Below are positions 6,369 to 46,514 of a stretch of 64,000 bases of DNA, one piece after another. The notes beneath the pieces were generated by a model. It was not told the DNA's origin. It saw only the letters and a list, made by a program, of their open reading frames with translations, and did not search any database. The stretch comes from a virus (lineage: Duplodnaviria > Caudoviricetes). The DNA lies in the IMG/VR virus record IMGVR_UViG_3300012953_000012, positions 32,001 through 96,000 of that record, one strand, 5' to 3'. Within the stretch, counting starts at the first letter, position 1, and each line of letters opens with the position of its first letter. The translations under genes were made by a program, and so were the position numbers.

Positions 6369-6418
6369 ACGACGAAAACGCGCCCCCGCCGACCCGAAGG
6401 TCAGTGGGGGCGCGTTCG
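6369..6418 (-). terminator. Intrinsic terminator, conserved family copy T1
   Basis: AACGCGCCCCC (6377-87) pairs with GGGGGCGCGTT (6406-16); minus-strand GACC-TTCG-GGTC tetraloop followed by TTTT; lies between convergent genes. Confidence 0.8.
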
Positions 6419-6421
6419 CGT

Positions 6422-6577
6422 TTAGGCGTTTCGGAAGCGTCGTCGGTCTTCGCGGCGAAGGCGACGGCGAGCAAGGCGTCGGGTGACACGTTTGCTGGGG
6501 TGTTCGGGAATGAGGATGCAGTAGTGTCCACGTTCACCGTAGGTGTCGCGGACGTTGAGCCGTTTGAATCGGTCCAT
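6422..6577 (-). CDS. Small Arg-rich protein, 51 aa (MDRFKRLNVRDTYG...RRLRREDRRRFRNA)
   Basis: GGAGAG SD before ATG; read manually. Confidence 0.6.
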   Translation of the reverse strand: MDRFKRLNVRDTYGERGHYCILIPEHPSKRVTRRLARRRLRREDRRRFRNA

Positions 6578-6594
6578 GTCTCTCCGGGTTGGGG

Positions 6595-6795
6595 TTAGCG
6601 GCCAGTCTCGTCTACGCCAGCCTCGGCAAGCGAGGTAGCGAGGAGCATTTCGGTGGGGGTGAGGACGAGGTCGTTGCCGTCCTCGTCAAGGATGTGGGTG
6701 GGGAACCACTGTCCCCCTCGCTGGGCGAAGGCGACAGTGATGTCGATGATCCCGCCCGGCGTGGTGCGCTGGACGGTCACGGTAGTGTCGGCCAT
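6595..6795 (-). CDS. Hypothetical protein, 66 aa (MADTTVTVQRTT...)
   Basis: GGAGG SD before ATG at 6795; phage-like codon use. Confidence 0.7.
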   Translation of the reverse strand: MADTTVTVQRTTPGGIIDITVAFAQRGGQWFPTHILDEDGNDLVLTPTEMLLATSLAEAGVDETGR

Positions 6796-6824
6796 GGGGG
6801 CCTCCTGTGATGGGGTTGAAGGGA

Positions 6825-7394
6825 TCATGCGACAGTGGCCCACTGGTTCCAGTAGTCCACGCCGCGCTGGTACTCGGCGGTGTCGAGGGGTTTGCCGTTG
6901 CCGCCCTGCTCGATGCCGAGGGCGTTCCGCATCTGGGCAGCGGGGCCGAGCGGGGCCGCTTCGGGAGCGGTCGCGCTGTTGATGGAGACGATGCCCCAAT
7001 CGGCGTCGATCTCCATCCCTTCCTTCTCCAACTGCTCGCGGGAGTAGAGGACAAGGTGCAGCCACTCGCACCGCTCGACTCGCACGGAGCCAGCGGGGAA
7101 GTGCCGGGTCAGCACAGCCAACTCGCCTTCGCGGCGAGCCTTGTACTCCGTGCGGAGAAGGGCTGCGTTGTACTTGGTGATCTTGGCAACGCCCGACAAA
7201 GCGTCGGTGAAGTTGCGGACGAAGACGTGGCGGACGAAGCCCGCCGTCTCGCCCTCAATGAAGTGACCCTCGTTGAGAGTCGCGCCGTAGACGAGGGCGT
7301 CGAAGTCCTCGACGGTGTGGCTGGCGATCTTGGTGCCAGCGAAGGTGGGGTCGAAGTGCCGACCTGCGGCGAAGGAAGTGGTCTGGATGCTCAT
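6825..7394 (-). CDS. DUF3228-family protein
   Basis: Motifs HVFVRNFT, LLRTEYKARREGELAVLTRHF, LVLYSREQL, WGIVSI, MRNALGIEQGGNG, DYW recalled as the DUF3228 signature. Confidence 0.75.
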   Translation of the reverse strand: MSIQTTSFAAGRHFDPTFAGTKIASHTVEDFDALVYGATLNEGHFIEGETAGFVRHVFVRNFTDALSGVAKITKYNAALLRTEYKARREGELAVLTRHFPAGSVRVERCEWLHLVLYSREQLEKEGMEIDADWGIVSINSATAPEAAPLGPAAQMRNALGIEQGGNGKPLDTAEYQRGVDYWNQWATVA

Positions 7395-7445
7395 GTGTGT
7401 CCTTTGGCCCTGTAGGGCACTGGGGGTGGGTGAGGGTCGCTGCCC

Positions 7446-7481
7446 TCACCTACTTACGGAAGCAGGGGGAAGTTTTAACGG
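7446..7481 (-). promoter_or_regulatory. Class I promoter-like repeat P1 (leftward)
   Basis: CCGTTAAAA-CTTCCCC-CTGCTTCCGTAAGTAGGTGA on minus strand. Confidence 0.85.
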
Positions 7482-7501
7482 CGACCCCCGAAAAAAATCC
7501 C

Positions 7502-7537
7502 CCGTTAAAACCGTCTGCTGCTTCCGTAAGTAGGTGA
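7502..7537 (+). promoter_or_regulatory. Class I promoter-like repeat P2 (rightward)
   Basis: CCGTTAAAA-CCGTCTG-CTGCTTCCGTAAGTAGGTGA; A-tract 7491-7497 upstream. Confidence 0.85.
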
Positions 7538-7589
7538 GGACCCGCACCTTCGCGCCCTCAAACCCCCAGAGCCCCATAGGAGGCTGACC

Positions 7590-7988
7590 ATGACCATCGT
7601 ATCGTTCGACTTCGACGACACGCTGGCCTGGACGCGAGTGATCCGAGACGCTGACGGCGACATCGAGGACACCGTCCCTGCTGGCGTCAACCCTCACATC
7701 ATGCCGCTGCTCCATGCAGCCCTCGACCGTGGCGACGAGGTTCACATCGTCACGACCCGCCACGCCTCTCGCTGGCGCGACATCACCCTGGCCGAACTTC
7801 GTGCCTGGGGTGTGCTCGACCGCCTTGCAGGCGTTCACTTCACCGATGGTGAGTGGAAGGCGGAAACTTTGTCCACGCTTCGGGTAGAGGTACATCACGA
7901 TGACGACCAGGATGAACTGGATCGTCTGCCGCCCGGATGCAGTGGTGTCCTGGCACCTCTACACCCGTCCTGGGGAGGTGTGCGATGA
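7590..7988 (+). CDS. HAD-superfamily phosphatase
   Basis: N-terminal VSFDFDDTL (DxD), IVTTR, K and HHDDD motifs; SD GGAGG. Confidence 0.8.
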   Translation: MTIVSFDFDDTLAWTRVIRDADGDIEDTVPAGVNPHIMPLLHAALDRGDEVHIVTTRHASRWRDITLAELRAWGVLDRLAGVHFTDGEWKAETLSTLRVEVHHDDDQDELDRLPPGCSGVLAPLHPSWGGVR

Positions 7989-8665
7989 CTGAGGAAGAGG
8001 CCAAAGCCAGACTGCTCCCCCCTGTGCAGAAGGGTGCTTTGGTGGTGGTCGTCCGTGGCCGCAAGGTGCCACGCGGCACTATGGGCGTGGTGAGGTGGGA
8101 AGGTGACGGTGACTACGGCCCCCGTGTGGGCCTCGCTGTCGAAGGCGAGGACAAACTCGTCTACACCGCCTACAAGAACGTCGATGCTGTGTACCCTGGC
8201 CTGATGCCTGGCCAGGATCCCGAGGGCGGTTGGGTCGAACTCTACGAGCGTGTGCAGCGGGAGCAACGGCTTCCGATGAAAGGGCACCGAATCGAGCACC
8301 GAGGCTCAGGCATGAAAGGCAAGGTCTTCTGGGCGCAGGGGAGCCGTATCGGCTTCAAGTCCGACAAGGGGGTCACCAACTGGTCCGACGCCCACGAGGT
8401 CTGGATGTTGTCGGGACCCATGGAGTGCCGTTTGGATTACGTCACCGAGGTTCCCGCCGTGCCTGCATTACGGGTCCTCCTTGAAGTAGACGCCCGGTCG
8501 CTTCCGGCCCCTTTCAATGAGATCCAGTACCTGGACCCCCTTCCCCAGGGCGGCTACCGAGGTTTGAATGGTCGCCAAGAGTACGTCGCCACGTTGCCTG
8601 AGGAGGTGGCCCAGCAACACCTTCCGGTTGTGGGCCACCTCCAGGATTCCGGGCGTCCTCGGTAG
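7985..8665 (+). CDS. Hypothetical protein with SH3/KOW-like repeats
   Basis: KGALVVVVRGRKVPRGTMGVVRW and GMKGKVFW patterns; ATGA overlap. Confidence 0.65.
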   Translation: MTEEEAKARLLPPVQKGALVVVVRGRKVPRGTMGVVRWEGDGDYGPRVGLAVEGEDKLVYTAYKNVDAVYPGLMPGQDPEGGWVELYERVQREQRLPMKGHRIEHRGSGMKGKVFWAQGSRIGFKSDKGVTNWSDAHEVWMLSGPMECRLDYVTEVPAVPALRVLLEVDARSLPAPFNEIQYLDPLPQGGYRGLNGRQEYVATLPEEVAQQHLPVVGHLQDSGRPR

Positions 8666-8695
8666 CCCGCCTATCGCCCCTCCACAGTCGGAGGC
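8661..8695 (+). promoter_or_regulatory. Class III motif (GGTAG-CCCGC-CTATC) plus SD-covering hairpin CCTCC/GGAGG
   Basis: Motif 8661-8675; arms 8679-8683 and 8690-8694; ATG 8700. Confidence 0.7.
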
Positions 8696-8699
8696 TTTC

Positions 8700-8843
8700 A
8701 TGGGCTGTGGCTGTCGCAAGAAGAACGGGGCGAAAAACCCAACGGCAATCAAGAAATCTGCTCCCCAGATTCGGGTTGCCCGTGCGATCCCTCGTGAGCC
8801 TGTGACGAAGCGACTCCCCCGAGGGACGCGGGTGCGCCGATGA
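8700..8843 (+). CDS. Small basic protein, 47 aa, starting MGCGCRKK
   Basis: GGAGG SD; first gene after a class III motif. Confidence 0.65.
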   Translation: MGCGCRKKNGAKNPTAIKKSAPQIRVARAIPREPVTKRLPRGTRVRR

Positions 8844-8887
8844 CGTGCCTATGCAACCGGGTACTGTGGCCCTTGATGGAGACTTGA

Positions 8888-11800
8888 ATGGCAATCCGCG
8901 ACAAGTACTTTCCTGGCTCAACCGTCAGTCGATACCTTCCGCCGGGAGAACACTCCTGGTCTGAGGCTATCTACCAGTCCGGTAAGCCAGTCCTCGACGC
9001 TGAACTGAATCTCTCCCAGGAAGTAGGGAAGGAGATCCGGCGTCTGATCCAGCACCATGAGACCCCGTCTGGGTGGCTGCGCGGACCCGTTCCGCCCTCC
9101 CTGACAGATTTCTCGTTCGGCAACCCCGCTGGAGGCTACCCCGCTGACTCCTTCTACATGGTGAACCGCACCGCCATCGTGGCTCAGATGCCCGTCACCG
9201 TGGCCTACACGGAGAACACGGAACCTCAGAACCTCATTCAGTTGTCGCCTGCGACTCTGGACAACGGCACCCCCGCCAACGTCAAGCGCACCGACTTCGT
9301 GTTCCTGGAGGTGTTCCGTGCCCTGGTGAGCCCTTCACCACACGCCTCTGGGTCCATCACCGTCCTGACGTTCCCGACCGCAGGCTCCATCACCATCAAC
9401 GGTGTGGCACTGACCCCCGCTGGCGGGCCTCGTGGCGTCGGCATCGGAGCCGACAACTACGACAACACGTTGGTGTCAGCAGCGGCCATCGCGGCGGACA
9501 TTCGGGACGCCATCAACGACTCATCCAACTCCTGGGCTGGGGTCGTCACCGCAGAGATCGACATCTCGGTTGCAGAGCAGGTGAACATCAAGGCCACGGA
9601 TGCGTTCGCCGGTGCAGCCGGTAATGCCATCGGCTTCATTGAGTCCACAGGCGGTGCCGAGTTTACCCTCGACCCTCTCGTCGGCAATCTCACGGGCGGT
9701 GTAGACACCCCGAACAAGCCGACCCAGGCCACTATCTACAGGAACGGAAACATCCTGGCCCCGGCAGGTGTGAACCTGCCCGACCGCATCGCTGATCCCA
9801 CCATCGGGACCGAGAGCACGAAGCGTGTTCAGATCCAGTACAACATCCGCAAGACCAACCAGACCGAAGCCGTCAACTTTCAGGTCACCAACGGCTTCAT
9901 CGGTGCCAACTGGATCGCAGCCACTACGGTCCCCTCTACAGCAGACTCAGAAGTCCGGGCTCAGGCTACCCAGGTCGCCCCTGTAGGGCGCTACCGGTTC
10001 GTCCCTGCTGATGGGGTCACAGTCCTTGCCTACATCGAGGTCACAGGCGTCGGAGCCATCGCGCTTGGCGACACCATCGACGTGAACGGCGTGACGCTGA
10101 CCGCAGCGAACCCCGCCGTGAACCCCGACGAGTTTGACCCTACAGGTGCTCCCGGAGCCATCGCCACCAGCATCGTCACAGCCATCACGGCCTCGGTGGG
10201 GACTGTTGCGGCCTCCGCTTCGGGATCACTCATCGCCATCGTTCCTGCCGTAAGCGGCGACAACGTGACCCTGAGCAGTGTCTTGACGACAAGCACCTCG
10301 GTCATCACGGCGGTCAACTCGGCTGTGTCGTACCAGACGGTAGACAATGGCCTCTACATCTCTGGTGACGGCACGCAGAAGGCAGCGACTGATCTCGGCA
10401 CTGTGGACGGCTACTCCTATGCCATCCCCATGTGCTTCGTCTTCCGCCGCAACGATGCCAGCACAACTGGCGGCTTCGACCCGGCAAACAACACCAACGG
10501 TGCGCTGGCGCATGACCATGCCCCCTTCAACAACACCCACCTCACAGGCGGGGCGACTGCGATCCCGGCGTCTACGTCTGACAGGCCCGACCAGCGGTTC
10601 CACGATGTCATTGTCTCAGGGGATGTCCTTGACCTTCGACGTCAAGTGTCCCCCGGCGGTGTTGACCTCAAGGCAGAACTTGAATCGCAGATGACCGCTC
10701 TTCTCGATGGTTCCATGCACACATGGGCCATCGACACTGAGGACATCACTGAACTGGGCAACTCCTCAGGGGATGTCTCGTCGGTGTACCTGGTGTGCAA
10801 CGAGATCGGTGACCAGGACAACGTCAACGGCGAAACCATCGGCAAGTGGGATCACATCCGACGCCGGTTCGCCGATCAGCCTGTCGTTGAACGCCGCATC
10901 TTCCCCATCACGTCTGACGCCCCTTCCGGGACAAACCCCGGCCTGTTCATGGACCCCACGAGGGCTGGATGGGAGGCAGGCCAGGTCATCAACATCAACC
11001 TCGGCCAACTTGACGCCTCGGGTCTGGGGGACTGGGTTCCCACGGCCTCTCCGGTGGTGGTGACGAACCAGTGGCCTGCCGGAACCACCATCACCAACGT
11101 CCTCCGAGTCGTTCACGACGACGGCAACTACGCCCTGGCCATCGACCAGAACGTCGAGACGGATCTGATTACCGGCATCGGTACGGACCACGTCCAGATC
11201 ACCCTGGCCCCGAACAACGCGCAGGCCAACGGAGGCGTGAACGGCGACCCTGGCTACGACATCGTCCCAACCGTCGCCGGTACTTCGGCTCGCCGCATCT
11301 TCGTCGAGTTGGAGATTTCGTACCCTGCCGGGGTGGGCATCTCGGCCACGCCGGACGAGATCATCGGCGGCTCCCCGACCGTGACCCCGTACCATGGCTC
11401 GGCCCTGGAGTACGACACCAGCAAACGCCCGACAGACTTTGAAGACCTCCAGCCCCCGGCCTACCGGCCCGGCTACCGTGAGGTCATGATGGAGTACATC
11501 TGCAACGATGGTCTCACAGTCCCCGTGTCGGGATCACCCATCACTGAGGAAGTGGTGAGTGGCAGTGGCATCGACCTGATCATGTCCCGCCGCTTCTACG
11601 GCATCAAGGGTGGTGCTCCTGCCCTCATGTCCGTGACAGACATCGGTGGAGGGCTCGGCGCTGTGCCGATTGACGACGCAGCCACGACATGGGGCAACTC
11701 CGCACGCAAGATCGTCCTCTCAGGGGCGGGTGTGGCTCCCGGTGTCCAGAGCAAGTGCTCCGTGGAGTACTTCGCGCAAGACCCCATCCCTGATTTCTCC

Positions 11801-12478
11801 AGCCCCGGCGACCGCTACCAGATCGCAGTCTACTTCCGTAGCAACGCGCCCCAGACGGTTGGTGTCATGGGCGGGTTCCCGGCGACTTCCCCGTTGCCGG
11901 ACACCCTGAACCTTGAGCCGTTGGTCATGTCCCGCAACCTGTGGACGAACACCACCTCCGTGGGATCACTGGACCTGGCGTTCCCCTACAGCAACCCGTC
12001 TGACCAGATCGCCGTCAACGCTGACCAGCAAACCGGCATCAACCCTCCGTTCCCTGGCGAGTGGGCTCTCATGTCCCTGGCCAAGATCAGCGTCGGTGAC
12101 TTCGACGCCGAGACGGGCCTGCTCAACCTGCATCAGATGGTCCCAGTTGACCCCAACTCGGACTTCTCCTTCTCCAGCCGTGCGTGGGATCACGAGTTCC
12201 GTGGGCACTACCGGATTGCCGATGTGAACGCCTATCGGCCTACGGCGATGGCCCAGCCGCTCTCTGGGGTCGCGACCCACAAGGTCTTCTTCCCCTTCCT
12301 GGCTCAGACCTCCGCAGACAACGTCTACTTCCGCAAGGGAGAGGTCGTGCTCGTGGTAGTCAGTCGATACGCACTTCTTGATGGAGACAACGTGGTTCGG
12401 TTCACGGATAGCGGCACAGACACCTGTGCTGCGGTGTACCGGACACGCGGGCTACTCCTTTTGGCTTCGGAGCGATAA
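8888..12478 (+). CDS. Baseplate/tail-associated structural protein (paralog of 20791..26148)
   Basis: Shared blocks KPVLDAELNLSQE, RTDFVFLEVF, TKRVQIQYNIR, DLGTVDGYSYAIPMCFVFRRN, DVLDLRR. Confidence 0.75.
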   Translation: MAIRDKYFPGSTVSRYLPPGEHSWSEAIYQSGKPVLDAELNLSQEVGKEIRRLIQHHETPSGWLRGPVPPSLTDFSFGNPAGGYPADSFYMVNRTAIVAQMPVTVAYTENTEPQNLIQLSPATLDNGTPANVKRTDFVFLEVFRALVSPSPHASGSITVLTFPTAGSITINGVALTPAGGPRGVGIGADNYDNTLVSAAAIAADIRDAINDSSNSWAGVVTAEIDISVAEQVNIKATDAFAGAAGNAIGFIESTGGAEFTLDPLVGNLTGGVDTPNKPTQATIYRNGNILAPAGVNLPDRIADPTIGTESTKRVQIQYNIRKTNQTEAVNFQVTNGFIGANWIAATTVPSTADSEVRAQATQVAPVGRYRFVPADGVTVLAYIEVTGVGAIALGDTIDVNGVTLTAANPAVNPDEFDPTGAPGAIATSIVTAITASVGTVAASASGSLIAIVPAVSGDNVTLSSVLTTSTSVITAVNSAVSYQTVDNGLYISGDGTQKAATDLGTVDGYSYAIPMCFVFRRNDASTTGGFDPANNTNGALAHDHAPFNNTHLTGGATAIPASTSDRPDQRFHDVIVSGDVLDLRRQVSPGGVDLKAELESQMTALLDGSMHTWAIDTEDITELGNSSGDVSSVYLVCNEIGDQDNVNGETIGKWDHIRRRFADQPVVERRIFPITSDAPSGTNPGLFMDPTRAGWEAGQVININLGQLDASGLGDWVPTASPVVVTNQWPAGTTITNVLRVVHDDGNYALAIDQNVETDLITGIGTDHVQITLAPNNAQANGGVNGDPGYDIVPTVAGTSARRIFVELEISYPAGVGISATPDEIIGGSPTVTPYHGSALEYDTSKRPTDFEDLQPPAYRPGYREVMMEYICNDGLTVPVSGSPITEEVVSGSGIDLIMSRRFYGIKGGAPALMSVTDIGGGLGAVPIDDAATTWGNSARKIVLSGAGVAPGVQSKCSVEYFAQDPIPDFSSPGDRYQIAVYFRSNAPQTVGVMGGFPATSPLPDTLNLEPLVMSRNLWTNTTSVGSLDLAFPYSNPSDQIAVNADQQTGINPPFPGEWALMSLAKISVGDFDAETGLLNLHQMVPVDPNSDFSFSSRAWDHEFRGHYRIADVNAYRPTAMAQPLSGVATHKVFFPFLAQTSADNVYFRKGEVVLVVVSRYALLDGDNVVRFTDSGTDTCAAVYRTRGLLLLASER

Positions 12479-12481
12479 ACC

Positions 12482-15400
12482 ATGCCTCGTAATGTAGATC
12501 CTGGAACTATCCGAGTTGGCAAGGGACTCGCCCCCGAAGGGACGGTCGAAGACAACTCGCTGCGCTACCCGGAGCGGGATGCCGATCCCCTTCGTGTTCA
12601 CATCCATGACCCCAGCCGCGCCCACATGGCGTCGAGCATCGGTATCGTAGATGAACTCGACTGCTACGTCTCTGACGAGGTTGAGGGTGCCCTCCAGGAA
12701 CTCTGTGGCAACTCCGCTGCGGGTCGCCTCAACGGCCTGATCGCAGGCGGGACCTTCAGCGAGTTGGGTTGTCTCCCCAACGGCACGGCGGGTGGTGTCC
12801 ACGCCACGTTGACCCTGTGCTCTCCTACAGAAATCCTGATGAACGGCACGGTCCTGGACGCCACGGGCCTCACTGTGTCCGTCCCTGCGGCCAACACGGT
12901 CTACTTCATCTACCTGGACACCCAGGTCAGCAGCCCGACCTACCGAGAACTGGTCGCGACCACGGGGACCCCTCCTCAGGTCGAAGTCGGTGATCCCGAC
13001 ACCACCACCGGCCCCGGCAGCATTGAAAACGTCATGCTCGCCAAGGTCACGATGGACGCAGGCGGCAACGTCGTGTCCTGGCAGGACGCACGCTTCTTCG
13101 TGCGGAACCTCGACCGCAAGGTCACTTACAGCAGCCGCCAGGGCGAGAACGTGGACGCCTGGTCCGAAGGTTGCTTCGCCAACCTTCAAGCCTTCTTCTT
13201 CTGGGCTGAGTACTACGGAGACGGTGCGCTCCCCTCCAGTAACGAGGAAGAGAAGGGCATGGTGCTGATCCGAGGGACGCACACGATCCTCTCGACGCTC
13301 AATGTGCCCACCGACCACCTCCAGTTTGTCGGCGACGGCGAAGCCATCATTGAGTTGACCGGCAACGCCGCCTTTGATGCGGTCCTGGTGGACGCGAAGA
13401 AGGACATCACCTTCCGCAACATCACCTTCCTGTGCAACGTGGCGAGCACGGGGAGCAAGGGCATCCGTGCTGCTGGAGACTTCACCGACCTCACCGTCGA
13501 GGACTGTCGTTTCCTGAGTGGGGCGCAAAACTTCAGCGTGGCCCTTCACCTTGACGCAGGCGGCGCGGTCAACGAGCGGATCACAGTCCGTGACTGCGCG
13601 ATTGAGGCTGTCGATTGCGGTGTCAATGTCGATGGCTTTGGGTCCACGTCCTCCTGGGGAACGCTGATCGAGAACTGTTCCGTCGATTCTCAGGCGGTCG
13701 CTGCGGGCTCTGTGGGCATCCAGTTGGGTGACAACCAGACCAACGGCTATGGCACCGTCCGAGGGTGCTTTGTTTCGTCTTTTGAGACCGGGATCATGGT
13801 CAAGGACACCGGCGTCACCCTGGTTGAGGGGAACACCATCCGGGACACCATCAGCGGGATCATCTACCCCAGCGATAGTGCCATTGGTCATACGGTGGTG
13901 AACAACCACATCACGCTCGGTGACAACCTCACCCTCCATGGCATCTTCTTCGGGATCGGTCACCAGAGCATCGTGATCTCGGGCAACTACATCCGCAGCC
14001 TCATTGACGGAGGTCACCCTTCGGAGCCTTACGGCATCTCCGTCCAGGGTCGCGCGGCGAGTGAGAAGGTGAACGCCCGCATTGAGAACAACCACGTCAT
14101 TGGCTTCTACGACGCCACTGCGACTATCGGGCACGGCATCTGGGTCGTGGGGACTGACGGCGTCTGTGAGGGTGTGACCATCACAGGGAACACACTTTCC
14201 CGGAACAACATCGCCGTTGAGTCCTGGATGAACGGAACCATCACGGGGAACACCGTTGAGGCAGCCACGCTCGGTATGCCTCCGGGGCCTACAGTAGGCG
14301 GGGCGATTGATCTCACCAATGCTCGCTCCTTCACGGTGAGCGGAAACACGGTCAATGCGCGGGATGTCATCCGCCATGGGGTGTACGCCCGTGTCGGCAA
14401 GGACCTGACGGTCACGGGGAACACTGTGACGCAGCCTTTCGTCACCGGAGTCCTGCTCGACTCCGGTCCCAACTTTGGTGCAATATCGGGGATGGAGAAC
14501 TTCACCGTGAGTGGAAACACGGTCGATGCCCTTCCTGATCCGGCCAACCCCTCCCTGCCTACGGCAGACGGGATCGTCATCAGCAGCACTACGGACGACG
14601 GATCTCCCGAAATCGGTGTTGTCGATGGCAACTCCGTTCGGCGTTGTCGCCACGGAATCTTGCTGACCGGCTTCGCCATCAACGTCCCGATCCGGGACGT
14701 CACGGTGTCAAACAACATCGTCTCCGAGTGCGCGAAGGACCAGGACACCTGGGACATCTGGGACTTCCAGGACGCGGGCACCTACGGAATCGGCTGCCTC
14801 TACGCGAAGAACATCATCCTCTCAGGGAACAACATTGGCAGCGTCGGCCAGGTCACGCTCGACACGGGCGCACCACTCGTCCCTGCGAACAACGTCTTTG
14901 TCCAGGCACTGTTCACCCTCAACTGCTCGGGGGTGACGGCTCAGGGGAACACCATCCGCAACTCGCTCCCTTATGGGACGGGTCGGGCCAACGACATCGC
15001 CCTGCTTGTGGGCCGCCTTGCCGGTGATGTGGAGTGCATCAACACTAAGGTCGAAGGCAACAGCATCATCATCAACGACAGTGTGGACCCCGGTAGTCAC
15101 CAGGGCATCCTGGCCTGGGCGGACGGTACGTCGGGCGTTGCCACGGCTGGCTTCATTGACTTGTCCATCTCGGACAACACGATCCACACAGTGAACGGAG
15201 CCAGCGGTTCCGGCGTCGGCACTGGGATTCACATCGTCGCTCAGGATGAGGGTGCTATCGAAGGTGCCCGCATTGAGGGCAACCAGATTGGAAACTACCT
15301 GTCCAGCGGGATCTACGTCCAAACGGGTGATGGGAGCCCTCAGGGCGACAGCAGCATGTATCGCGTGGGCGTCCGGCACAACACGCTCAGGTCCATGGGT

Positions 15401-18397
15401 GTAGCCGGACCTACGGCGGCTATCTACGTCACAGCCTTCACCGACGACGACCACATCAAGCGCATCTACATGCTCACCATCGAGGGGAACACCATCTCTA
15501 ACTCGTGGGGTCAGGGGATCTACTTCACCTGTGCAGCATCGGACACGACCACGACCGGCTTTATCGGTATGGACGCCATCACCGTAACGGACAACGAGAT
15601 CGACAGGCTTCTCTGGAACCAGGCTCAGGGCGCAGTCGGAATCGGCTTTGTCCTCGACGGAGGCACGAATGAGAGGATGAATACTGGATACCCAGCGTTC
15701 ACCACGCCGGGCCTTCAGAACTTCTCGGTGCTCAGGAACCGTGTCAGCCAGGTGGGGCGGGGCTTTGACCTGGGCGGTGACGACATCTTGTCCTGGGTCA
15801 ACTTCGCCATCGAGGACAACAACTGGTCTGGGAACGGATCTGCTCACCTCACCCCGACCACCGACTACCTCAACCGGGTGTCCCTCTCCCTCACCGACAG
15901 CACCAAGGAGATGACCCTTGAAAACTGGTCCATCTCCGGGAACAACTGCGCCATCGATCTCCAGAACCGGCAGTTGGATAACTGGCGGTTCCTGACGGAG
16001 AACGCCAATGTCTCGGTCCTCCGGGTCCAGGGCAACCAGATCAACGGCTCTGGGCTCGATGCCACACCCAACGACTATGGGCGTTCATTCTACTACCTCG
16101 GAAACAACCAGAAGAATGCGTTGGTGTCCACCGACCACAAGGAGATCCACATCTCCGGGAACACCTTTGGAGGGGGCCTCTACTGGGAGGCCAGAAACTC
16201 CAGCCTCTACAGGATGGACATCCACGGGAACCAGATCTCGGTCCCTGTCGCAGATGCTGACACCCCCACCCTGTCCCCCCTGACCCTGTGGAACAACGGC
16301 TTCGACGTTGACGGCCTCAAACTCCAGACAGTCCACGTCCGGGAGAATGCCCTGACGGGAGGGACACACAGTCTTCTCTTCATGGTTGATGACACCCAGG
16401 AGATCGAGGAGATCGCGATCTGCGGGAACGCCTTTCAGGACGCCCGTCTTCACGCGGTGTGGTTCGGCGTAGACCAGACATCCGGGGTGTCGTACCACTC
16501 AGACGTCGTCAGGAACCTCCTGATCGACGGCAACATCATCGGCAACCACGGCGCAAACTCAAGCAACCAAGCCACCGGCATCCGCTTCGCAGCGGGGCAG
16601 GCGGCCACACAGACGCTCGGGATCACGAACAACCAGGTGTACAACCAGGACCTCCAGGCGATCACCTGCTTCTTCGGCGGCTCGGTTCCGGCCTTTGGGG
16701 GAGCCTACGACAGGAACATCACCATCGAGGACAACAAGATAGACCTGTGTGGGTACACCGACGCCGCTCTCCCCTTGATCTCCCTGGAGGTGGACCCTGC
16801 GGCCAGCCTCGGGGTCAACGACGACATCAGTTCGGTCTCTGTCAGCGGCAACCAGATCAGCAACAGCGGGTGGTCCGATGGCAGTGTTGGCATCTACGCT
16901 GACTTCGCTGACTACGGAATCTGCTACGACATGCGAGTGGACGACAACACCCTGACCCAACCCTCGGGCAGCATCATCAACCCGAGTCGTTTCGGTTCGG
17001 GTGTCGAGTTGGACCTCCCCTCCGCACAGCGGCTCTCCGTGTCCCGCAACCAACTGCGGTGCAGCGGGTTCGCCGGGGGTGTGACTAAGGGCTTTGGGGT
17101 CTTCCTCCAGTTTTACCGGGGCGTGGATCCGGGATCCTCTGAACCTGGCATCTCTGGGATCGCCCTGGACGACAACATCATCAGCCTTGACGACGATTCT
17201 GATGGGGGCATCAACTGGGCGGTACTGGCGACCGAGGACATGCAGATTCGGGACTTCAGTGTCTGCCGCAACCAGATCCGCGCCAGGACCGCCAACATAG
17301 TCAGCACCGGGATTCGGTTCGTCGGTGAGGACGGAGCAGGGGACTACTCAGGCTACTTGCAGAACGTCCACATCAACGACAACCTCATCTCAAACTTGCG
17401 GACGGCGGTGGAGTTGCGCCAGTCCGAGTTGGACATGCTCCATGACGGACTTCTTCTGCGGAACTGCGGGATGGACGGCAACAACGTCTATGAGTGCTCC
17501 ATCCAGGGACTCGTCTGGAAGACAGGGGCGGTGAACGCCAACTCGGGCAACATTCATGGTTTCTCGGCAAGCCGGAATCAGGTGACGACGACTCGCCGTG
17601 GAGACCAGAGCAGTGCGGCCAACCCCCTGCTCGGCGTTTACTTCGGTCGAGGGTTTTTGTCGGGCGTCGGCTCGGTCAACATGCACTCGATCTCTGTCGA
17701 TGACAACCAGATTTACCTGGCCAACCCCGACGACCAGGGCACTGAATGGACGGGTATTCATCTGCAACTGTCTGCGGTCAACAATGACGGCGGGGGGCCT
17801 GTCCCCAGCGCCATGACCACCATCAGTTGTGACAGGAACCACATCCGAAACACAGGCTACAACGCCATTGACTTTGAGATGATGGGCTATACCGAGCAGA
17901 ACGCTCAGGGTGACCTGACCAATGTCACCAAGGTCAAGAACGCCTCCTGCTCGGGCAACCTGATCATTGGCGGGACGGAGATGGTAACCACTATTCACCG
18001 GGGCCTTCTCCGAATCGATCTCCAGAACGCCGTCCTTCAACAGTTCACCCTCCAGGGGAACAACGTCGAAACCGTCTTTGCAGACGGTCTGGGCGAGGCT
18101 TTGGTGGTCGCCACCTTGTACCTCCCCCCCAACCCTCCCGTGAACAATAACGACGACAACCAGTACTGGTCAGTGCAAAGCAACGTCATCACCCATGGCT
18201 CAGACGGCAACGAGCATGTCATCGCAGTCATGGACGGAGGGTCAGGTGTCACGGGCTGGCACTATGGACCTCCAGTGCAGGGAATCGTCACGGGGAACCT
18301 CAACACCTCCGACACGAATGCTTCCGACGACTTCAATGGCGCGTACTGGACCTTCGGGGGGACCAGCATCCAGTCCAACAACCTCGTGATCCCGTAG
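12482..18397 (+). CDS. Giant tail spike/fibre with long right-handed parallel beta-helix (pectin-lyase-like repeats)
   Basis: N-terminal HIHDPSRAHMASSI...VEGALQEL fibre-anchor motif; dozens of I/V-x-G/D-N-x-I/V repeats. Confidence 0.85.
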   Translation: MPRNVDPGTIRVGKGLAPEGTVEDNSLRYPERDADPLRVHIHDPSRAHMASSIGIVDELDCYVSDEVEGALQELCGNSAAGRLNGLIAGGTFSELGCLPNGTAGGVHATLTLCSPTEILMNGTVLDATGLTVSVPAANTVYFIYLDTQVSSPTYRELVATTGTPPQVEVGDPDTTTGPGSIENVMLAKVTMDAGGNVVSWQDARFFVRNLDRKVTYSSRQGENVDAWSEGCFANLQAFFFWAEYYGDGALPSSNEEEKGMVLIRGTHTILSTLNVPTDHLQFVGDGEAIIELTGNAAFDAVLVDAKKDITFRNITFLCNVASTGSKGIRAAGDFTDLTVEDCRFLSGAQNFSVALHLDAGGAVNERITVRDCAIEAVDCGVNVDGFGSTSSWGTLIENCSVDSQAVAAGSVGIQLGDNQTNGYGTVRGCFVSSFETGIMVKDTGVTLVEGNTIRDTISGIIYPSDSAIGHTVVNNHITLGDNLTLHGIFFGIGHQSIVISGNYIRSLIDGGHPSEPYGISVQGRAASEKVNARIENNHVIGFYDATATIGHGIWVVGTDGVCEGVTITGNTLSRNNIAVESWMNGTITGNTVEAATLGMPPGPTVGGAIDLTNARSFTVSGNTVNARDVIRHGVYARVGKDLTVTGNTVTQPFVTGVLLDSGPNFGAISGMENFTVSGNTVDALPDPANPSLPTADGIVISSTTDDGSPEIGVVDGNSVRRCRHGILLTGFAINVPIRDVTVSNNIVSECAKDQDTWDIWDFQDAGTYGIGCLYAKNIILSGNNIGSVGQVTLDTGAPLVPANNVFVQALFTLNCSGVTAQGNTIRNSLPYGTGRANDIALLVGRLAGDVECINTKVEGNSIIINDSVDPGSHQGILAWADGTSGVATAGFIDLSISDNTIHTVNGASGSGVGTGIHIVAQDEGAIEGARIEGNQIGNYLSSGIYVQTGDGSPQGDSSMYRVGVRHNTLRSMGVAGPTAAIYVTAFTDDDHIKRIYMLTIEGNTISNSWGQGIYFTCAASDTTTTGFIGMDAITVTDNEIDRLLWNQAQGAVGIGFVLDGGTNERMNTGYPAFTTPGLQNFSVLRNRVSQVGRGFDLGGDDILSWVNFAIEDNNWSGNGSAHLTPTTDYLNRVSLSLTDSTKEMTLENWSISGNNCAIDLQNRQLDNWRFLTENANVSVLRVQGNQINGSGLDATPNDYGRSFYYLGNNQKNALVSTDHKEIHISGNTFGGGLYWEARNSSLYRMDIHGNQISVPVADADTPTLSPLTLWNNGFDVDGLKLQTVHVRENALTGGTHSLLFMVDDTQEIEEIAICGNAFQDARLHAVWFGVDQTSGVSYHSDVVRNLLIDGNIIGNHGANSSNQATGIRFAAGQAATQTLGITNNQVYNQDLQAITCFFGGSVPAFGGAYDRNITIEDNKIDLCGYTDAALPLISLEVDPAASLGVNDDISSVSVSGNQISNSGWSDGSVGIYADFADYGICYDMRVDDNTLTQPSGSIINPSRFGSGVELDLPSAQRLSVSRNQLRCSGFAGGVTKGFGVFLQFYRGVDPGSSEPGISGIALDDNIISLDDDSDGGINWAVLATEDMQIRDFSVCRNQIRARTANIVSTGIRFVGEDGAGDYSGYLQNVHINDNLISNLRTAVELRQSELDMLHDGLLLRNCGMDGNNVYECSIQGLVWKTGAVNANSGNIHGFSASRNQVTTTRRGDQSSAANPLLGVYFGRGFLSGVGSVNMHSISVDDNQIYLANPDDQGTEWTGIHLQLSAVNNDGGGPVPSAMTTISCDRNHIRNTGYNAIDFEMMGYTEQNAQGDLTNVTKVKNASCSGNLIIGGTEMVTTIHRGLLRIDLQNAVLQQFTLQGNNVETVFADGLGEALVVATLYLPPNPPVNNNDDNQYWSVQSNVITHGSDGNEHVIAVMDGGSGVTGWHYGPPVQGIVTGNLNTSDTNASDDFNGAYWTFGGTSIQSNNLVIP

Positions 18398-18405
18398 GAG
18401 GACCC

Positions 18406-19371
18406 ATGCTGAACACACCCATCATCACATACGTTGGCAGATACGAGGATGCCGCCTCCATGGCGGCCCCAGCATCTGTGCTGTCCGCCCAGGGGTGGTT
18501 GTCCCACCGCGCGGGACCGGAGCACGCAGAGGTGGAGATCACTCCCGCCGACGCCCAGAACCGCCGGAATGCGGTGCTTGCTGCCATCGTGGCGAAGATC
18601 CCCGCTGGGATCACGCGGGTGCTGGACATTGGTTGCGGCAACGGTGACCTCGCCGAGGCCCTTCACGCGACCCGTCCTGAGGTGAACTACCGGGGCATAG
18701 ACATCTCCATGGAGGCCATCGCCGCAGCCAACACCAACCTGGAGTCCTCCCCCGGAAACCTTCCTGCAAACGTCGAGTTGCAGACGGCAAACCTCACGGA
18801 GTACCTGCTTGCAGGGGTGGATGACTGGGACTTCATTGTCTCCTCTCGCTGTGTCTTTCGGGAGACTCGCAGATCTGGCGACCGCGCCCTTCTCCGACTC
18901 ATCGACAGCAAGGCTCCCAAGGGGTGGTTCATCTACGGAACCCACTGGCGTATGCTCCGTCCCGATCTTCAGTACGTCATGCAGGAAGCGTTGACCAACA
19001 GCACCGACCCCACCGAGCACTACTTCAAAGGTGCTCAGTCCTTTCTGAATGTCGCTGCGGCGTTCGTCGGGTACGAGAAAGAGCACCCGGCCTACATCAT
19101 CAGGGGGGCCTCCGTGGCTCCTGCGCCTGATCCCGGCAAGTACCAGAAGTTCGATGTGATGAAGAACGGCAAGTTTGAGGAGGCCCGCGCACAAGGGACC
19201 CTCAAGTACGACTCAGGCATGACGGAGTACAAGAGTGCTACGTTCGACGCCCAGGGGCAGTTCACGGGAGAGGTGGTTGTGAGCAAAGCGTCCGCCCCCG
19301 CGAAGGCCAACCTTGCGGACGTGGAGTCACAGAAGACCAACCTTCAGAACCTCAAACAGATCGCGGGGTAG
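18406..19371 (+). CDS. Class I SAM-dependent methyltransferase domain protein in the tail operon
   Basis: RVLDIGCGNGDL (motif I), YRGIDIS (motif II), WDFIVS. Confidence 0.8.
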   Translation: MLNTPIITYVGRYEDAASMAAPASVLSAQGWLSHRAGPEHAEVEITPADAQNRRNAVLAAIVAKIPAGITRVLDIGCGNGDLAEALHATRPEVNYRGIDISMEAIAAANTNLESSPGNLPANVELQTANLTEYLLAGVDDWDFIVSSRCVFRETRRSGDRALLRLIDSKAPKGWFIYGTHWRMLRPDLQYVMQEALTNSTDPTEHYFKGAQSFLNVAAAFVGYEKEHPAYIIRGASVAPAPDPGKYQKFDVMKNGKFEEARAQGTLKYDSGMTEYKSATFDAQGQFTGEVVVSKASAPAKANLADVESQKTNLQNLKQIAG

Positions 19372-19380
19372 GACACCAAC

Positions 19381-40803: not shown

Positions 40804-40809
40804 ACCCGC

Positions 40810-43316: not shown

Positions 43317-43349
43317 GGGTAGGGTGAACCCTACCCATCGGAGGACACA

Positions 43350-43751
43350 ATGGCAAAAGGCAAGATCAAGCGCGTAGCGAACCTCGACCCCCAGAAATGG
43401 GAGAACGAGTCGTACCTGTTCGTGAAGGTGGAGGGCTCCTGGTCAGCACAGGCCGAGGAATACCTGCTGCTCACGGACCACGAGGTCACCGAGGCCAGCG
43501 ACCGGGCCAGCAAGAACACCGAGGACGTGCCTGACCTCAAGCGTGGGGTCTTCACCCGCGTGGACAACCGAGACAAGCACGCCGCCGCAGACGACTACTA
43601 CATCGCCTTCCAGGTGCGGGACGCGGACGGCAACGACGTGGACCTGATGTTCACCGAGGAGGCGATGGACCGCATCCGCAAGCGGGTCGAAGCCAACGCC
43701 GAAGACGTGGAGGCAAACAAGACTGGCTGGCTGGCAGACCTGTTCGACTAA
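43350..43751 (+). CDS. Acidic protein with internal tandem duplication
   Basis: Two similar ~55-aa halves; GGAGG SD. Confidence 0.7.
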   Translation: MAKGKIKRVANLDPQKWENESYLFVKVEGSWSAQAEEYLLLTDHEVTEASDRASKNTEDVPDLKRGVFTRVDNRDKHAAADDYYIAFQVRDADGNDVDLMFTEEAMDRIRKRVEANAEDVEANKTGWLADLFD

Positions 43752-43760
43752 GGAGCGACC

Positions 43761-43982
43761 GTGAGCAAGAACATCAAGATCATCGAGGGCAAGGACGGCA
43801 ACGACGTCGAGGTCGTGACCCGATCCGCTTCAAAGAAGCGATTGGCGCGACACCCAGACAAAGACAAGCGCCCGCTGTTCGGCGGTCCCGAGTCCGTCCT
43901 CGGTGGGCGGGTCCAGAAGGATCTGGACAACGCGCTGATGTACGCCTCGCTCGACGCGCTCATGAACCCGCAGGGGGAGTGA
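43761..43982 (+). CDS. Hypothetical protein
   Basis: AAGGAG SD before GTG. Confidence 0.65.
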   Translation: MSKNIKIIEGKDGNDVEVVTRSASKKRLARHPDKDKRPLFGGPESVLGGRVQKDLDNALMYASLDALMNPQGE

Positions 43983-44428
43983 TGTCCGACGACAAGCCCC
44001 ACACCACTATGTTCCCCATCGACCACGGCGGTGTGCTCACTGCCGCAGCCAAGGCGGCGGGATTCGTAGAGATCGCCTCGACGCCCGCCATCAACCACGG
44101 CGAGATCAAGGGGAGAAGGGGGGTCACGATGACTCACCCATGGGAAGACCCCAACCTCATGCCGCTGTACCAAGTCCAGTTGGAGACGCGGGACTTGCTC
44201 GTGTCCTACGAGATCGCCACCCCGGACTTCGACTATGTGGAGATCGCCATGGCCCACCTGCGAGAGCGGCTGCGTGATCCCCACGTCCCCATCCACTACG
44301 GCGGTGGTGGCGACATTGGCTACCACCCCATCGGTGACGGCAAGCCTGTGGTCATCGAGTGGAAGGTGACGACGGGCACCCTGAGCAAGAAGTCCAACAA
44401 CGACGAAAACGCGCCCCCCAGACCGTGA
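43982..44428 (+). CDS. Hypothetical protein
   Basis: GGGGAG SD; 3' end runs into terminator T2. Confidence 0.6.
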   Translation: MSDDKPHTTMFPIDHGGVLTAAAKAAGFVEIASTPAINHGEIKGRRGVTMTHPWEDPNLMPLYQVQLETRDLLVSYEIATPDFDYVEIAMAHLRERLRDPHVPIHYGGGGDIGYHPIGDGKPVVIEWKVTTGTLSKKSNNDENAPPRP

Positions 44429-44449
44429 GGTCCAGGGGGCGCGTTCGTC
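44400..44449 (-). terminator. Intrinsic terminator, conserved family copy T2
   Basis: ACGACGAAAACGCGCCCCC identical to T1 over 19 nt; GACC-GTGA-GGTC loop; GGGGGCGCGTTCG arm. Confidence 0.8.
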
Positions 44450-44455
44450 ATGGGA

Positions 44456-44653
44456 TTAGCGGGGGCGCAGCATCGCCACGCACTCGGCGTGGTGTTGGCG
44501 GGAGTCAGGCCCACGAAGGTCACCCTTCTCAGCCATGCACGCCATGATGGCGTACCGGGCTTCGTCGTTGGGCTTCACTACCTTCTGGTAGTAGACGCCC
44601 ACTCCGACGAGGAGGGCAAAGATGGTGGCAGCAGCAGCAATACGATCAGTCAT
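44456..44653 (-). CDS. Small membrane-anchored protein with two Cys (65 aa)
   Basis: N-terminal TM IAAAATIFALLVGVGVYY; sole gene between P3 and T2. Confidence 0.7.
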   Translation of the reverse strand: MTDRIAAAATIFALLVGVGVYYQKVVKPNDEARYAIMACMAEKGDLRGPDSRQHHAECVAMLRPR

Positions 44654-44692
44654 GTGATCTCCGTTTCAGCAGTGGTGGAGGGGAACCCCCTC

Positions 44693-44727
44693 CACCTACT
44701 TACGGAAGCAGCACCCCCTTTTAACGG
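44693..44727 (-). promoter_or_regulatory. Class I promoter-like repeat P3 (leftward, unpaired)
   Basis: CCGTTAAAA-GGGGGTG-CTGCTTCCGTAAGTAGGTG. Confidence 0.85.
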
Positions 44728-44739
44728 GGCGGGATCAAA

Positions 44740-45135
44740 CTACTTGCCCAGAGCGCCCGACACCGCTGCCTTGAAGAACAAGGCACCGAAGGTGCCGAGG
44801 AGATGCCCGGCCTTCTTGACTGCCTGACGGGCCGACTTCTTTTCGGCTCGTTCGGCATTCTGGAGGGCAGCCACAGCATCACTCGCGACACGAGGGCTGG
44901 CCCAATCGATCTTCGGGGTCTCGCCTCGCAGCATCTTGTTGATCTCACGCTTCGCGATCTTGACGCCCTCAGGGCCGAGATTCTCAACGGCGTCAGCCAT
45001 CAAGGAGAGCACGAGCGCCTTCGTGGGGTCATCGGCATCGGAAGCCAGTGCGTCCAGTTCCTCCTGAGCCTTCGCGACGGCAGCGTTGCCGACCAGTGGG
45101 ATCAGGGACTCCAGGGTGCTTGAAAAGTCAGACAT
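44740..45135 (-). CDS. Helical Ala-rich protein with hydrophobic C-terminus
   Basis: GAGGA SD; C-terminal LLGTFGALFFKAAV. Confidence 0.65.
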   Translation of the reverse strand: MSDFSSTLESLIPLVGNAAVAKAQEELDALASDADDPTKALVLSLMADAVENLGPEGVKIAKREINKMLRGETPKIDWASPRVASDAVAALQNAERAEKKSARQAVKKAGHLLGTFGALFFKAAVSGALGK

Positions 45136-45138
45136 GGC

Positions 45139-45537
45139 TCAGTCCTCCTCGGCGGGTTCGGGTGAGGCGGCAGGTGCAGCGGGGAGCGGGCAAGACAAGG
45201 GAGCGATTTCTGGCGGTTGCTCAGACGGCTCTGCCTCGATCATCCCAGCGTTCCACAGGCTCATGGACTTGTGCCACTCATGGCGAGCCTCGATGGTCAG
45301 CACGAAGTCCGCAGCCTTCTCGCACTCGGGGTCAGAGAACTGGGGTCCCTCGGCATCCGACTCGCAGGAGCAGTGCTCTTCGATGAAGGTCCGAAGGTAC
45401 TTGGCCTGCTGGGTAGCCCAGTTGTCGTACTGGTCGAGTTCGGCCTGATAGACACGGGCGTCCCGCAGGACGGTCTTGTGGGCGCACCCGGCTGTCAGAC
45501 TGACAGCGACGAGAAGCGCGGTGATTTCTGCTTTCAT
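45139..45537 (-). CDS. Lipoprotein (possible spanin-like lysis component)
   Basis: MKAEITALLVAVSLTAG-C lipobox; Cys pairs; Pro-rich tail. Confidence 0.7.
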   Translation of the reverse strand: MKAEITALLVAVSLTAGCAHKTVLRDARVYQAELDQYDNWATQQAKYLRTFIEEHCSCESDAEGPQFSDPECEKAADFVLTIEARHEWHKSMSLWNAGMIEAEPSEQPPEIAPLSCPLPAAPAASPEPAEED

Positions 45538-45541
45538 GGCG

Positions 45542-45611
45542 ATTCGCCTCCAACGATGGTTCACCGGACTATACCGGCGACACATCGTTGGAGGCGAATA
45601 GAGGGGCTACC
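45542..45611 (-). promoter_or_regulatory. Class III motif (GGTAG-CCCCT-CTATT) plus 17-bp hairpin covering the SD of the lipoprotein gene
   Basis: Motif 45611-45597; arms 45583-45599 and 45542-45558 perfectly complementary; GGAGG 45551-45547. Confidence 0.8.
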
Positions 45612-45918
45612 ACCAGTGGTGGTCAGGGTGGGAATCCAACTCGGCAACGTAGGCGGCCACGGCGGCAGCATCCCGAGCAGCCTCGATGGCTCCCACAGCC
45701 CGCTCCAGGGCAGCGTAGCGAGCGGGGTGCTCCAGGATCATGTCGGGGTCGAGGTCGATGCCGAAGGCGTCCTTGAGGGACACCGTTTCAATCTCGGCCT
45801 CTTCGCCGGGTTGGTCCCAGGTCGCAGCGCAACCAGGGGAGTAGGTCAGGGAGCCGGTCACGATGCCCATTCCGGGCAGGGTCACAGCGTCTTCGGTGGT
45901 CAGGGTCACAGTAGGCAT
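45607..45918 (-). CDS. Hypothetical protein (MPTVTLTTEDAV...)
   Basis: GGAG SD before ATG 45918. Confidence 0.65.
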   Translation of the reverse strand: MPTVTLTTEDAVTLPGMGIVTGSLTYSPGCAATWDQPGEEAEIETVSLKDAFGIDLDPDMILEHPARYAALERAVGAIEAARDAAAVAAYVAELDSHPDHHWW

Positions 45919-45943
45919 GGGGTCTCCAGGGTGGGGGTCAACA

Positions 45944-45994
45944 ACGCCGAAAATGCCCCCCGCCAACGTCGCTACTGTCGCGGGGGGGTCGCAT
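45944..45994 (-). terminator. Diverged copy T3 of the terminator family
   Basis: ACGCCGAAAATGCCCCCC...GGGGGGG.CGCAT; downstream of the P4-driven gene. Confidence 0.5.
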
Positions 45995-46017
45995 GAACAC
46001 GGTCGCTGCGGGACGCA

Positions 46018-46275
46018 CTACAGTAGTGCTGCCAGCCCAGCGAACGGGTTGTAGGTGAGGTCACTCCAGGTGTCGGCAGGGGGAAGCGGTCCTTGATACG
46101 GAGGCCGGGTCATGTCCGCGATCTCTTCGTAGAGGAAGTCCGCCAGAGCCACCATGCCAGCCTCGTCGTCCGACGCGGGGAAGATGACTCTGCCCCGAGG
46201 TCGGATGCCGTAGGTATCCTTGTAGACGTCGGAGTAGAGGGAGTACGCCTGGTCAAGGCGGGTTTGGGGGGTGAT
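46018..46275 (-). CDS. Small phage protein (YSDVYKDTYGIRPR family); start codon uncertain, possibly ATC
   Basis: Recognisable phage motif; GGAG is 5 nt before ATC at 46275. Confidence 0.55.
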   Translation of the reverse strand: MTPQTRLDQAYSLYSDVYKDTYGIRPRGRVIFPASDDEAGMVALADFLYEEIADMTRPPYQGPLPPADTWSDLTYNPFAGLAALL

Positions 46276-46479
46276 GAAAACTCCAGTTGGGGTTGATGGG
46301 GAAGGGGAACAGGAAGGGAATGTCGGACCGCCCAAGGATACGAACCTCGGACCACGACTCACTCGTTGGAGCGAGCGTCAACACATCGCCCTGCTGCTCC
46401 AACAGCAAGGATCAACGTCGGTTGTCGTGGTGACCGTCACGGCCATAAGGGAGGCAGCATCGTCGTCGCTGCCTCCTTG

Positions 46480-46514
46480 CATCTACTTACGGAAGCAGAC
46501 GAGAGTTTTAACGA
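46480..46514 (-). promoter_or_regulatory. Class I promoter-like repeat P4 (leftward)
   Basis: TCGTTAAAA-CTCTCGT-CTGCTTCCGTAAGTAGATG; A-tract 46525-46531. Confidence 0.85.

Follow-up and report, generated by a model that had tools for sequence, protein, structure and literature searches.

Class I promoter-to-terminator units in an uncultured jumbo phage: two fixed units, a variable module array and the case for and against gene shuffling

The window considered here is a stretch of 64,000 nucleotides (nt), taken at positions 32001-96000 from an IMG/VR virus record (G0) of 205,564 bp that is assigned to the Caudoviricetes and has a G+C content of 62%. Three leftward units within it, P1-T1, P3-T2 and P4-T3, each run from a copy of a repeated promoter (class I) to a putative terminator, and the initial annotation of the window proposed them as self-contained cassettes whose conserved ends might mediate gene shuffling. 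Comparison with related genomes leads us, with fair confidence, to regard them instead as ordinary phage transcription units that would lie at hotspots of gene flux, not as a dedicated shuffling system. To judge by synteny, P1-T1 and P3-T2 are ancient, fixed units, and a true variable array appears at P4-T3 only. Modular flux is real at some class I sites, and any part that the conserved ends might play in recombination is hypothetical.

Cargo of the three units in related genomes

Two related records were fetched whole: G1 (141 kb, ~95% DNA identity to G0), which covers window positions 1-21056 and bridges both ends of G0, and G2 (68 kb, ~80% identity to G0), which covers 17-83 kb in window numbering. 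About 15 further related loci, L026-L053, came from a metagenome scan and contig look-ups. L050 and L051 were dropped as synteny witnesses, as they hold paralogous WGR genes in other contexts. The features at P1-T1 are listed below, with lengths of proteins in amino acids (aa).

5402-6352, plus strand: 316-aa WGR-like gene, last of a rightward operon; its stop codon TGA begins T1
6350-6421, no strand assigned: T1, putative bidirectional terminator with two hairpins; box TGATTTCTC, small hairpin, tail ACGACGAAAAC, main hairpin 6377-6416
6422-6577, minus strand: 51-aa Arg-rich open reading frame, last gene of the P1 unit
6595-6795, minus strand: 66-aa gene, syntenic with the DUF3228 gene in six genomes
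6825-7394, minus strand: 189-aa DUF3228 gene, first gene of the P1 unit (family match E 7e-49)
7447-7481, core 7450-7465, minus strand: P1, class I promoter, facing away from P2, with an A7 tract between the two
7503-7534, plus strand: P2, class I promoter, opens a rightward gene series

Gene calls recover all three genes originally placed in P1-T1. The order WGR gene, T1, 66-aa gene, DUF3228 gene is kept in G0, G1, L047, L048, L049 and L052, across which the WGR protein is 67 to 89% identical. The 51-aa frame was found by tblastn in G0, G1 and L048, and the sequence reads through also in L052; it is absent from L047 and L049. Variation is placed beside T1, where a rightward gene of 145-150 aa lies just upstream in G1, L047 and L052 and the 51-aa gene lies just after. 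Extra leftward genes occur beyond P1 in L047, L048 and L052. The insertion next to T1 in G1 has a junction microhomology of 3 nt (TCT). We considered whether the 147-aa gene before T1 in G1 could be the 148-aa gene before T2 in G0, that is, a gene-plus-terminator module that had moved, and rejected this, the proteins being dissimilar.

The DUF3228 gene is fixed in position, and among the six genomes it falls into at least four allele classes of ~70% identity that do not follow their flanks. Between G0 and G1 the protein is 69% identical and both flanks are 99-100% identical; the divergent patch (6880-7411) shows 60-90% identity. This looks like a diversifying or frequently exchanged locus. Swapped alleles of ~70% identity in near-identical genomes fit diversifying pressure, for example from host interaction.

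The features at P3-T2 are as follows.

43982-44428, plus strand: 148-aa gene, in G0 only, inserted just before T2
44400-44447, no strand assigned: T2, putative terminator, paralogue of T1; main hairpin 44408-44445
44456-44653, minus strand: c65, gene for a 65-aa single-pass membrane protein, sole gene of the unit
44693-44727, core 44696-44711, minus strand: P3, class I promoter within a leftward gene series
44740-45918, minus strand: leftward genes of 131, 132 and 103 aa, which form the class III unit of the initial annotation

The small membrane protein gene described for this unit is borne out by gene calls, and its product has an N-terminal hydrophobic helix. In G0, G2, L026, L028, L032, L029 and L030, c65 lies beside the 131-aa gene with the promoter between them, the block of 132-aa gene, 131-aa gene, promoter, c65 and terminator being in opposite orientation in L029 and L030. 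In L033, tblastn finds c65 immediately downstream of the 131-aa gene and on its strand; in L038 and L041 it finds the gene on the opposite strand. This brings the adjacency to ten genomes in all, inverted ones included. Because c65 adjoins the 131-aa gene across genomes, P3-T2 makes up the long-established end of a gene block. The unit had been described as wedged between a rightward operon and the class III unit; this layout stands, but the block appears old and inverted, not inserted, and the position of P3-T2 against the rightward operon would be a result of that inversion. In L038 and L041 the c65 unit also contains a relative of the C-terminal half of the 66-aa protein of the P1 unit.

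Of the two rightward genes before T2, of 73 and 148 aa, neither occurs in L026, L028 or L032, and G2 also lacks the 148-aa one; on this distribution they appear to be later additions. Compared with G2, the junction of the 148-aa gene at T2 has 1 nt of microhomology, and the last ~13 codons of its frame run into old intergenic and T2 sequence.

At P4-T3 we identified the following features.

45944-45990, minus strand: T3, weak terminator; 8-bp G/C stem, 16-nt loop, then UUUUCGGCGU
46018-46335, minus strand: c3, the gene carried by the P4 unit; 85 aa if read from an apparent ATC start (46275), 105 aa if read from TTG (46335)
46276-46306, minus strand: C-rich leader and ribosome-site module CCCTTCCCCATCAACCCCAACTGGAGTTTTC, also found at an unrelated gene, record ~162566-162595
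46480-46514, core 46483-46498, minus strand: P4, class I promoter with a positional orthologue in G2, there in a different lineage version
46602-46633, plus strand: P5, class I promoter, divergent from P4

The unit holds one small gene, as first described, c3 being its single open reading frame (85-105 aa). G2 has the divergent pair P4/P5 at the corresponding position, and between G0 and G2 everything from the P4 leader to the 103-aa gene differs. In G0 the site has a 200-nt leader followed by c3 and T3. The G2 site contains a 118-aa gene, then a second promoter that is degenerate, and an AbrB-like gene of 47 aa. In L053 it has the G2 backbone, a clean 385-nt insertion that consists of the C-rich leader, c3 and T3, and a 137-aa gene. 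Thus c3, with which T3 travels, is present in G0 and L053 and absent from G2. The site is thus a genuinely variable array, in which a single promoter is followed by differing leader-gene-terminator modules.

A comparable event was identified in the early region of the genome, where record positions 162587-160166 (four genes, two class I promoters and two terminators) are replaced by 430 nt in L055, a phage of the G2 type. The boundaries of the replacement lie in a C-rich leader and in a terminator tail, and the rest of the early region is collinear. The replacement segment (L055 14278-14708) has no obvious gene and contains a tRNA-T-arm-like GGGGGTTCAACTCCCCC; ARAGORN found no tRNA in it.

An apparent ATC start codon after the C-rich leader and GGAG (GGAGTTTTC-ATC-ACC) is seen at window position 46275 (minus strand), at G0 record position 162562 (minus strand) and at L053 ~106, and no ATG, GTG or TTG occurs at the expected distance in the three genes. 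Because the frames upstream of ATC differ between window 46275 and record 162562, the shared C-rich stretch would be leader and not coding sequence. c3 and the gene at record 162350-162562 were considered as paralogues and rejected, as BLASTP found no similarity and they share just the 30-nt leader/start region. The C-termini of c3 (46018-46060) and of the unrelated 118-aa G2 protein (L010 ~10555-10590) both read ...(Y/H)(N/S)PFAGL..., possibly a short motif common to the two.

Taken over the three units, the claim that conserved ends let cargo be swapped or moved holds in part: support is confined to one unit and there to the variation of its cargo. Different cargo is found behind the positionally conserved P4 in G0, G2 and L053, but two of the three units have cargo that is fixed and syntenic in relatives (P1-T1 in six genomes, P3-T2 in ten), which the initial annotation had itself named as evidence against shuffling, and chimeric ends were not found. 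The Pfam and PHROGs databases gave no function for the cargo proteins, DUF3228 excepted. No Rfam family matched anywhere in the window, and megablast of window positions 6000-12000 against GenBank phages gave no match.

Promoters and terminators at the unit borders

P1, P3 and P4 were confirmed as class I motif copies at the places first given for them. In full the motif reads CGTTAAAA-N7-CTGCTTCCGTAAGTA. Most copies have a T/A run ~15 nt upstream, and the layout is bipartite and -35/-10-like, with an UP-like tract. The core CTGCTTCCGTAAGTAG occurs eight times in the window at no more than one mismatch (0.24 expected), and ~16 good copies are present across the G0 record, often as back-to-back divergent pairs. 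Eight of these cluster in a 10-kb early island (record 160.8-171.0 kb); the remainder are at operon borders, before small genes that lack a family match. When viral contigs were scanned for the class I promoter with its N7 spacer, the G1 record was the sole match. No sigma-70 consensus site was found in window positions 1-20000.

Orthologous promoter sites are rewritten by lineage. At the P3 position a promoter was found in every relative read there, each in the version of its own lineage, and over all sites there are at least four versions: CGTTAAAA in G0, G1 and L026; CGTTAATC in L028, L032, L047 and L049; GGTTGGAGC in G2, L048, L052 and L055; and GGGTTCAAC in L029 and L030. Between lineages the promoter cores match at just 16-28 of 36 nt, in flanking sequence that is 80-95% identical. 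Because they differ by lineage in this way, the promoters would be incapable of giving homology for exchange between lineages. Conserved positions combined with lineage-specific rewriting suggest that promoters of one genome are alike through recognition by a single lineage-specific factor. The within-genome likeness of class I copies is thus best explained by shared recognition and not by recombination.

Two side observations concern class I sites. In L048 (~9120-9160) and L052 (~9090-9130), an extra leftward gene, metallophosphatase-like, has its stop codon directly after the -35 box GGTTGGAGCG of the rightward partner promoter. The partner promoter thus seems to have been split by an insertion in both, and both contigs end before the other junction. 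Outside the window, ~1 kb of G0 that follows a class I promoter (record 171010-172060) has no gene by a simple gene caller, contains many hairpins and a repeat of GGGATCAC in three copies, and is partly replaced in G1.

T1 and T2 share an exact 19-mer, at 6369 and 44400 (0.01 expected in the window), and have in common the inner GACC/GGTC stem and the 3' arm, as the initial annotation reported. Their predicted folds are strong (-41 to -53 kcal/mol, z -4.9 to -7.0). On the minus strand AAAA precedes the hairpin and TTTT succeeds it, and UUUUCGUCGU follows each element. Both are located at convergent junctions, have the sequence features expected of bidirectional intrinsic terminators and are predicted to terminate the rightward operons as well; the L028 copy of T2 is symmetric, with A6 and T5. 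T1 and T2 probably stop transcription from both sides.

The history of the two elements can be read from their relatives. In L026, L028 and L032, T2 comes directly after a 133-aa gene with its full left flank, TGATTTC(T/G)CG, and T1 begins likewise after the WGR gene. Since this flank equals the start of T1, the shared element would be ~75 nt long, and the homology takes in the stop codon and the box. Each of T1 and T2 retains its own version of the inner stem in all orthologues, so their duplication would be old. The T1 core is 49/49 identical in L047, L048 and L052. Exceptional conservation of T1 and T2 was looked for and not found, the orthologues being kept about as well as their flanks.

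T3 has in common with T1 and T2 just the tail TTTTCGGCGTTGTTG and a 3' arm with a G-run. It does not fold better than shuffled sequence (z -0.85) and is at best a weak member of the family. The view that one terminator family closes all three units therefore holds for the near-identical T1 and T2, and T3 resembles them loosely. Related arms and tails were identified in terminators that close other class I units (record ~160163, 160895, 170941 and 171250), and the family is wider and older than first described. Intergenic GATTTCTC boxes in the record adjoin family terminators in 3 of 3 cases, with ~0.3 expected from the intergenic share. A scan of viral contigs for the terminator pattern recovered G2 plus one unrelated chance match (L011).

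Accounting for gene flux at the units

In the explanation that we prefer, each unit would open with one of the class I promoter copies that belong to the phage itself, read by one lineage-specific transcription factor, and would end at a Rho-independent terminator of a design repeatedly used in this phage group. T1 and T2 would be old paralogues of one ~75-nt two-hairpin element, placed where rightward and leftward units converge. Gene gain and loss may be least harmful at operon ends and in promoter-proximal leaders, and gain, loss, allele replacement and inversion would pile up beside the signals because changes there do least harm. Illegitimate (microhomology) recombination and homologous recombination between co-infecting relatives, filtered by selection, could explain the events. 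Recombination between repeated promoter or terminator copies would not be required.

The junctions and the wider pattern of rearrangement are consistent with this explanation. The indels next to T1 (in G1) and T2 (in G2) have a signal on one side only, no chimeric promoter or terminator was found at their junctions, and no chimeric copy was identified at P4-T3 or at the early-region replacements. Over 88 kb, G0 and G1 differ by 11 indels and by ~40 divergent patches, of which many are inside long genes; such patches appear to reflect general mosaicism. Between G0 and G2 there are 24 gaps in 65 kb, mostly far from any class I signal. Two phages that are ~90% identical differ by a clean inversion of ~1 kb that involves a divergent two-gene module (L038 11645-12623, L041 11638-12765). 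Its break points fall exactly at gene borders, and no inverted repeats longer than 8 nt were found at its ends. The first gene of the inverted module is a homologue of a G0 early-region gene (record 160234-160731, 165 aa).

Several observations weigh against reading the units as ordinary. All three have variation inside or touching them; such enrichment is suggestive, although it is not clearly above that at intergenic sites in general. The divergent DUF3228 patch ends just within the transcribed leader adjoining P1. The blocks replaced at P4-T3 and in the early region start at the conserved C-rich leader and stop at the terminator tail, which are exactly the boundaries that recombination in conserved leader and tail segments would give. 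Dispersed paralogous terminator modules (T1, T2, record 160163 and 160895) need a copying mechanism. Beyond the window, an 866-bp gene (record 103124-103989, equivalent to window 71124-71989) is absent from G2 and is flanked by direct repeats that comprise a late-type promoter and ribosome site (CTAT(A/G)G ... CCTGTAGGAGG ... ATG). It is the clearest indel flanked by repeated regulatory sequence in these genomes, and it involves a different promoter class. Finally, the promoter and terminator activities are themselves predictions.

A recombination system like the promoter-early stem-loop (PeSL) cassettes documented in T4-like phages (PMC2839356, PMC4122927) would account for several of these points. 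Portable homology for cassette excision, insertion, swap and inversion would then be provided by the 36-nt promoter repeat, by the C-rich leader and by the terminator module of ~70 nt, with each cassette supplying its own expression signals. Consistent with this, the modules are repeated (~16 promoters and at least 4-6 related terminators), and terminator-promoter composites occur at record ~160.81-160.90 kb and 170.90-170.99 kb. The cargo combinations at P4-T3 in G0, G2 and L053 are modular and include the clean insertion of leader, c3 and T3, the L055 replacement of two promoters, two terminators and four genes has its boundaries in leader and terminator tail, L038 and L041 have the homologue of the 165-aa early-region gene within another class I unit, and the boundary of the DUF3228 patch adjoins P1. 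However, the three flagged units lack a chimeric promoter or terminator junction and lack repeats on both sides of a differential gene, the cargo of P1-T1 and P3-T2 is syntenic, promoters that differ by lineage cannot supply homology between lineages, inversion end points lack repeats, and most indels are away from class I signals. We therefore consider such a system rather unlikely. Similarly doubtful is a fuller jumbo-phage counterpart of PeSLs, in which promoter, C-rich leader with its apparent ATC start and ~70-nt GATTTCTC-box terminator would all serve as recombination joints for the gain, loss, exchange and inversion of small cassettes, and promoters could also be homogenised within a genome.

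Two further explanations concern the terminators. The T1/T2 element, GATTTCTC box included, could be more than a terminator: a conserved site for binding or processing, placed at the borders of units and spread by that function, for example a site for a termination/antitermination factor or an RNase, or one that acts at the DNA level. The extent of the T1/T2 homology, which includes stop codon and box, the placement of every intergenic box beside a family terminator and the tetraloops and internal loops that are unchanged in several orthologues are in keeping with this. Yet T1 and T2 are not clearly better conserved than the neighbouring coding sequence, the box occurs in either orientation or in part, Rfam is silent throughout the window, and use in two directions already constrains stem change, so we hold a border site to be improbable. 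Convergence on a simple GC-rich terminator, as opposed to common descent, finds an example in the unrelated viral contig L011, which carries AAAAACGCGCCCCCC...GGGGGCGCGTT by chance. It is very improbable for T1 and T2, given the low expectation for their shared 19-mer and the inner stem, tail ACGACGAAAAC and left flank (seen in L026, L028 and L032) that extend the similarity to ~75 nt.

A 258,585-bp contig carries a WGR protein of G1 type, P0004, that is 88% identical, and the length of the contig matches the genome size expected from the overlap of G0 and G1. The contig was deposited as a Planctomycetaceae metagenome-assembled genome. It is probably a near-complete genome of the same phage type that was binned with a bacterium, and the binning is a weak hint at the host. 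Overall, these genomes show how accessory genes are organised and turn over in poorly known, uncultured marine giant phages of ~258 kb. Elements that are fixed (unit positions, DUF3228 and c65) can be told apart from those that move (small genes by terminators, the P4 array and early cassettes), and concrete junctions become available for testing recombination at regulatory repeats outside T4-like phages.

Comparison with known systems

PeSLs are ~100-bp intergenic composites of an A/T-rich tract, an early sigma-70 promoter and a stem-loop terminator or attenuator (PMC2839356). They occur in RB49, phi1 and other T4-like phages (PMC2839356, PMC4122927). RB49 and phi1 each have ~50 of them, on either side of differential genes, and excised mini-circles were demonstrated (PMC2839356). 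The class I signals resemble PeSLs as repeated early-type promoters with an A/T-rich upstream tract and GC stem-loops nearby: most copies combine an A/T run with the promoter, and several have a leader hairpin. They precede small genes of unknown function, some differential genes among relatives adjoin them, and the early region has terminator-promoter composites at two sites. As in PeSLs, the copies are many and are concentrated in variable regions before orphan genes. However, at P1, P3 and P4 the terminator is at the opposite end of the unit, outside the promoter motif, and the motif is rewritten per lineage and is not the sigma-70 consensus. Copies are also fewer (~16 as against ~50), and the PeSL signature, a differential gene flanked by two copies in one genome and replaced by one chimeric copy in the other, was not found at these units.

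Morons, reportedly described by Juhala/Hendrix et al. in 2000, are autonomous promoter-gene-terminator insertions in lambdoid and other tailed phages. The units here are likewise self-contained, with their own predicted promoter and terminator (T3 being weak), lie between or against main operons and have cargo of unknown, probably accessory function. The module of leader, c3 and T3 is present or absent between otherwise collinear relatives. In contrast to morons, P1-T1 (6/6 relatives) and P3-T2 (10/10) are conserved and not recent additions, the mobile c3 module has a leader and a terminator and no promoter of its own, and expression from a prophage is not at issue in this uncultured jumbo phage. 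The moron concept thus fits the c3 and T3 module and not the two fixed units.

Phage-specific promoter sets are known to co-evolve with their polymerase or sigma factor, as in the promoters of T7, T3 and SP6 and in phage sigma cascades. The class I motif differs from T7-type promoters in being bipartite and -35/-10-like with an UP-like tract, and the factor that would read it is a putative one. It resembles them in the near-identity of copies within a genome and in the systematic differences between sister phages at orthologous sites.

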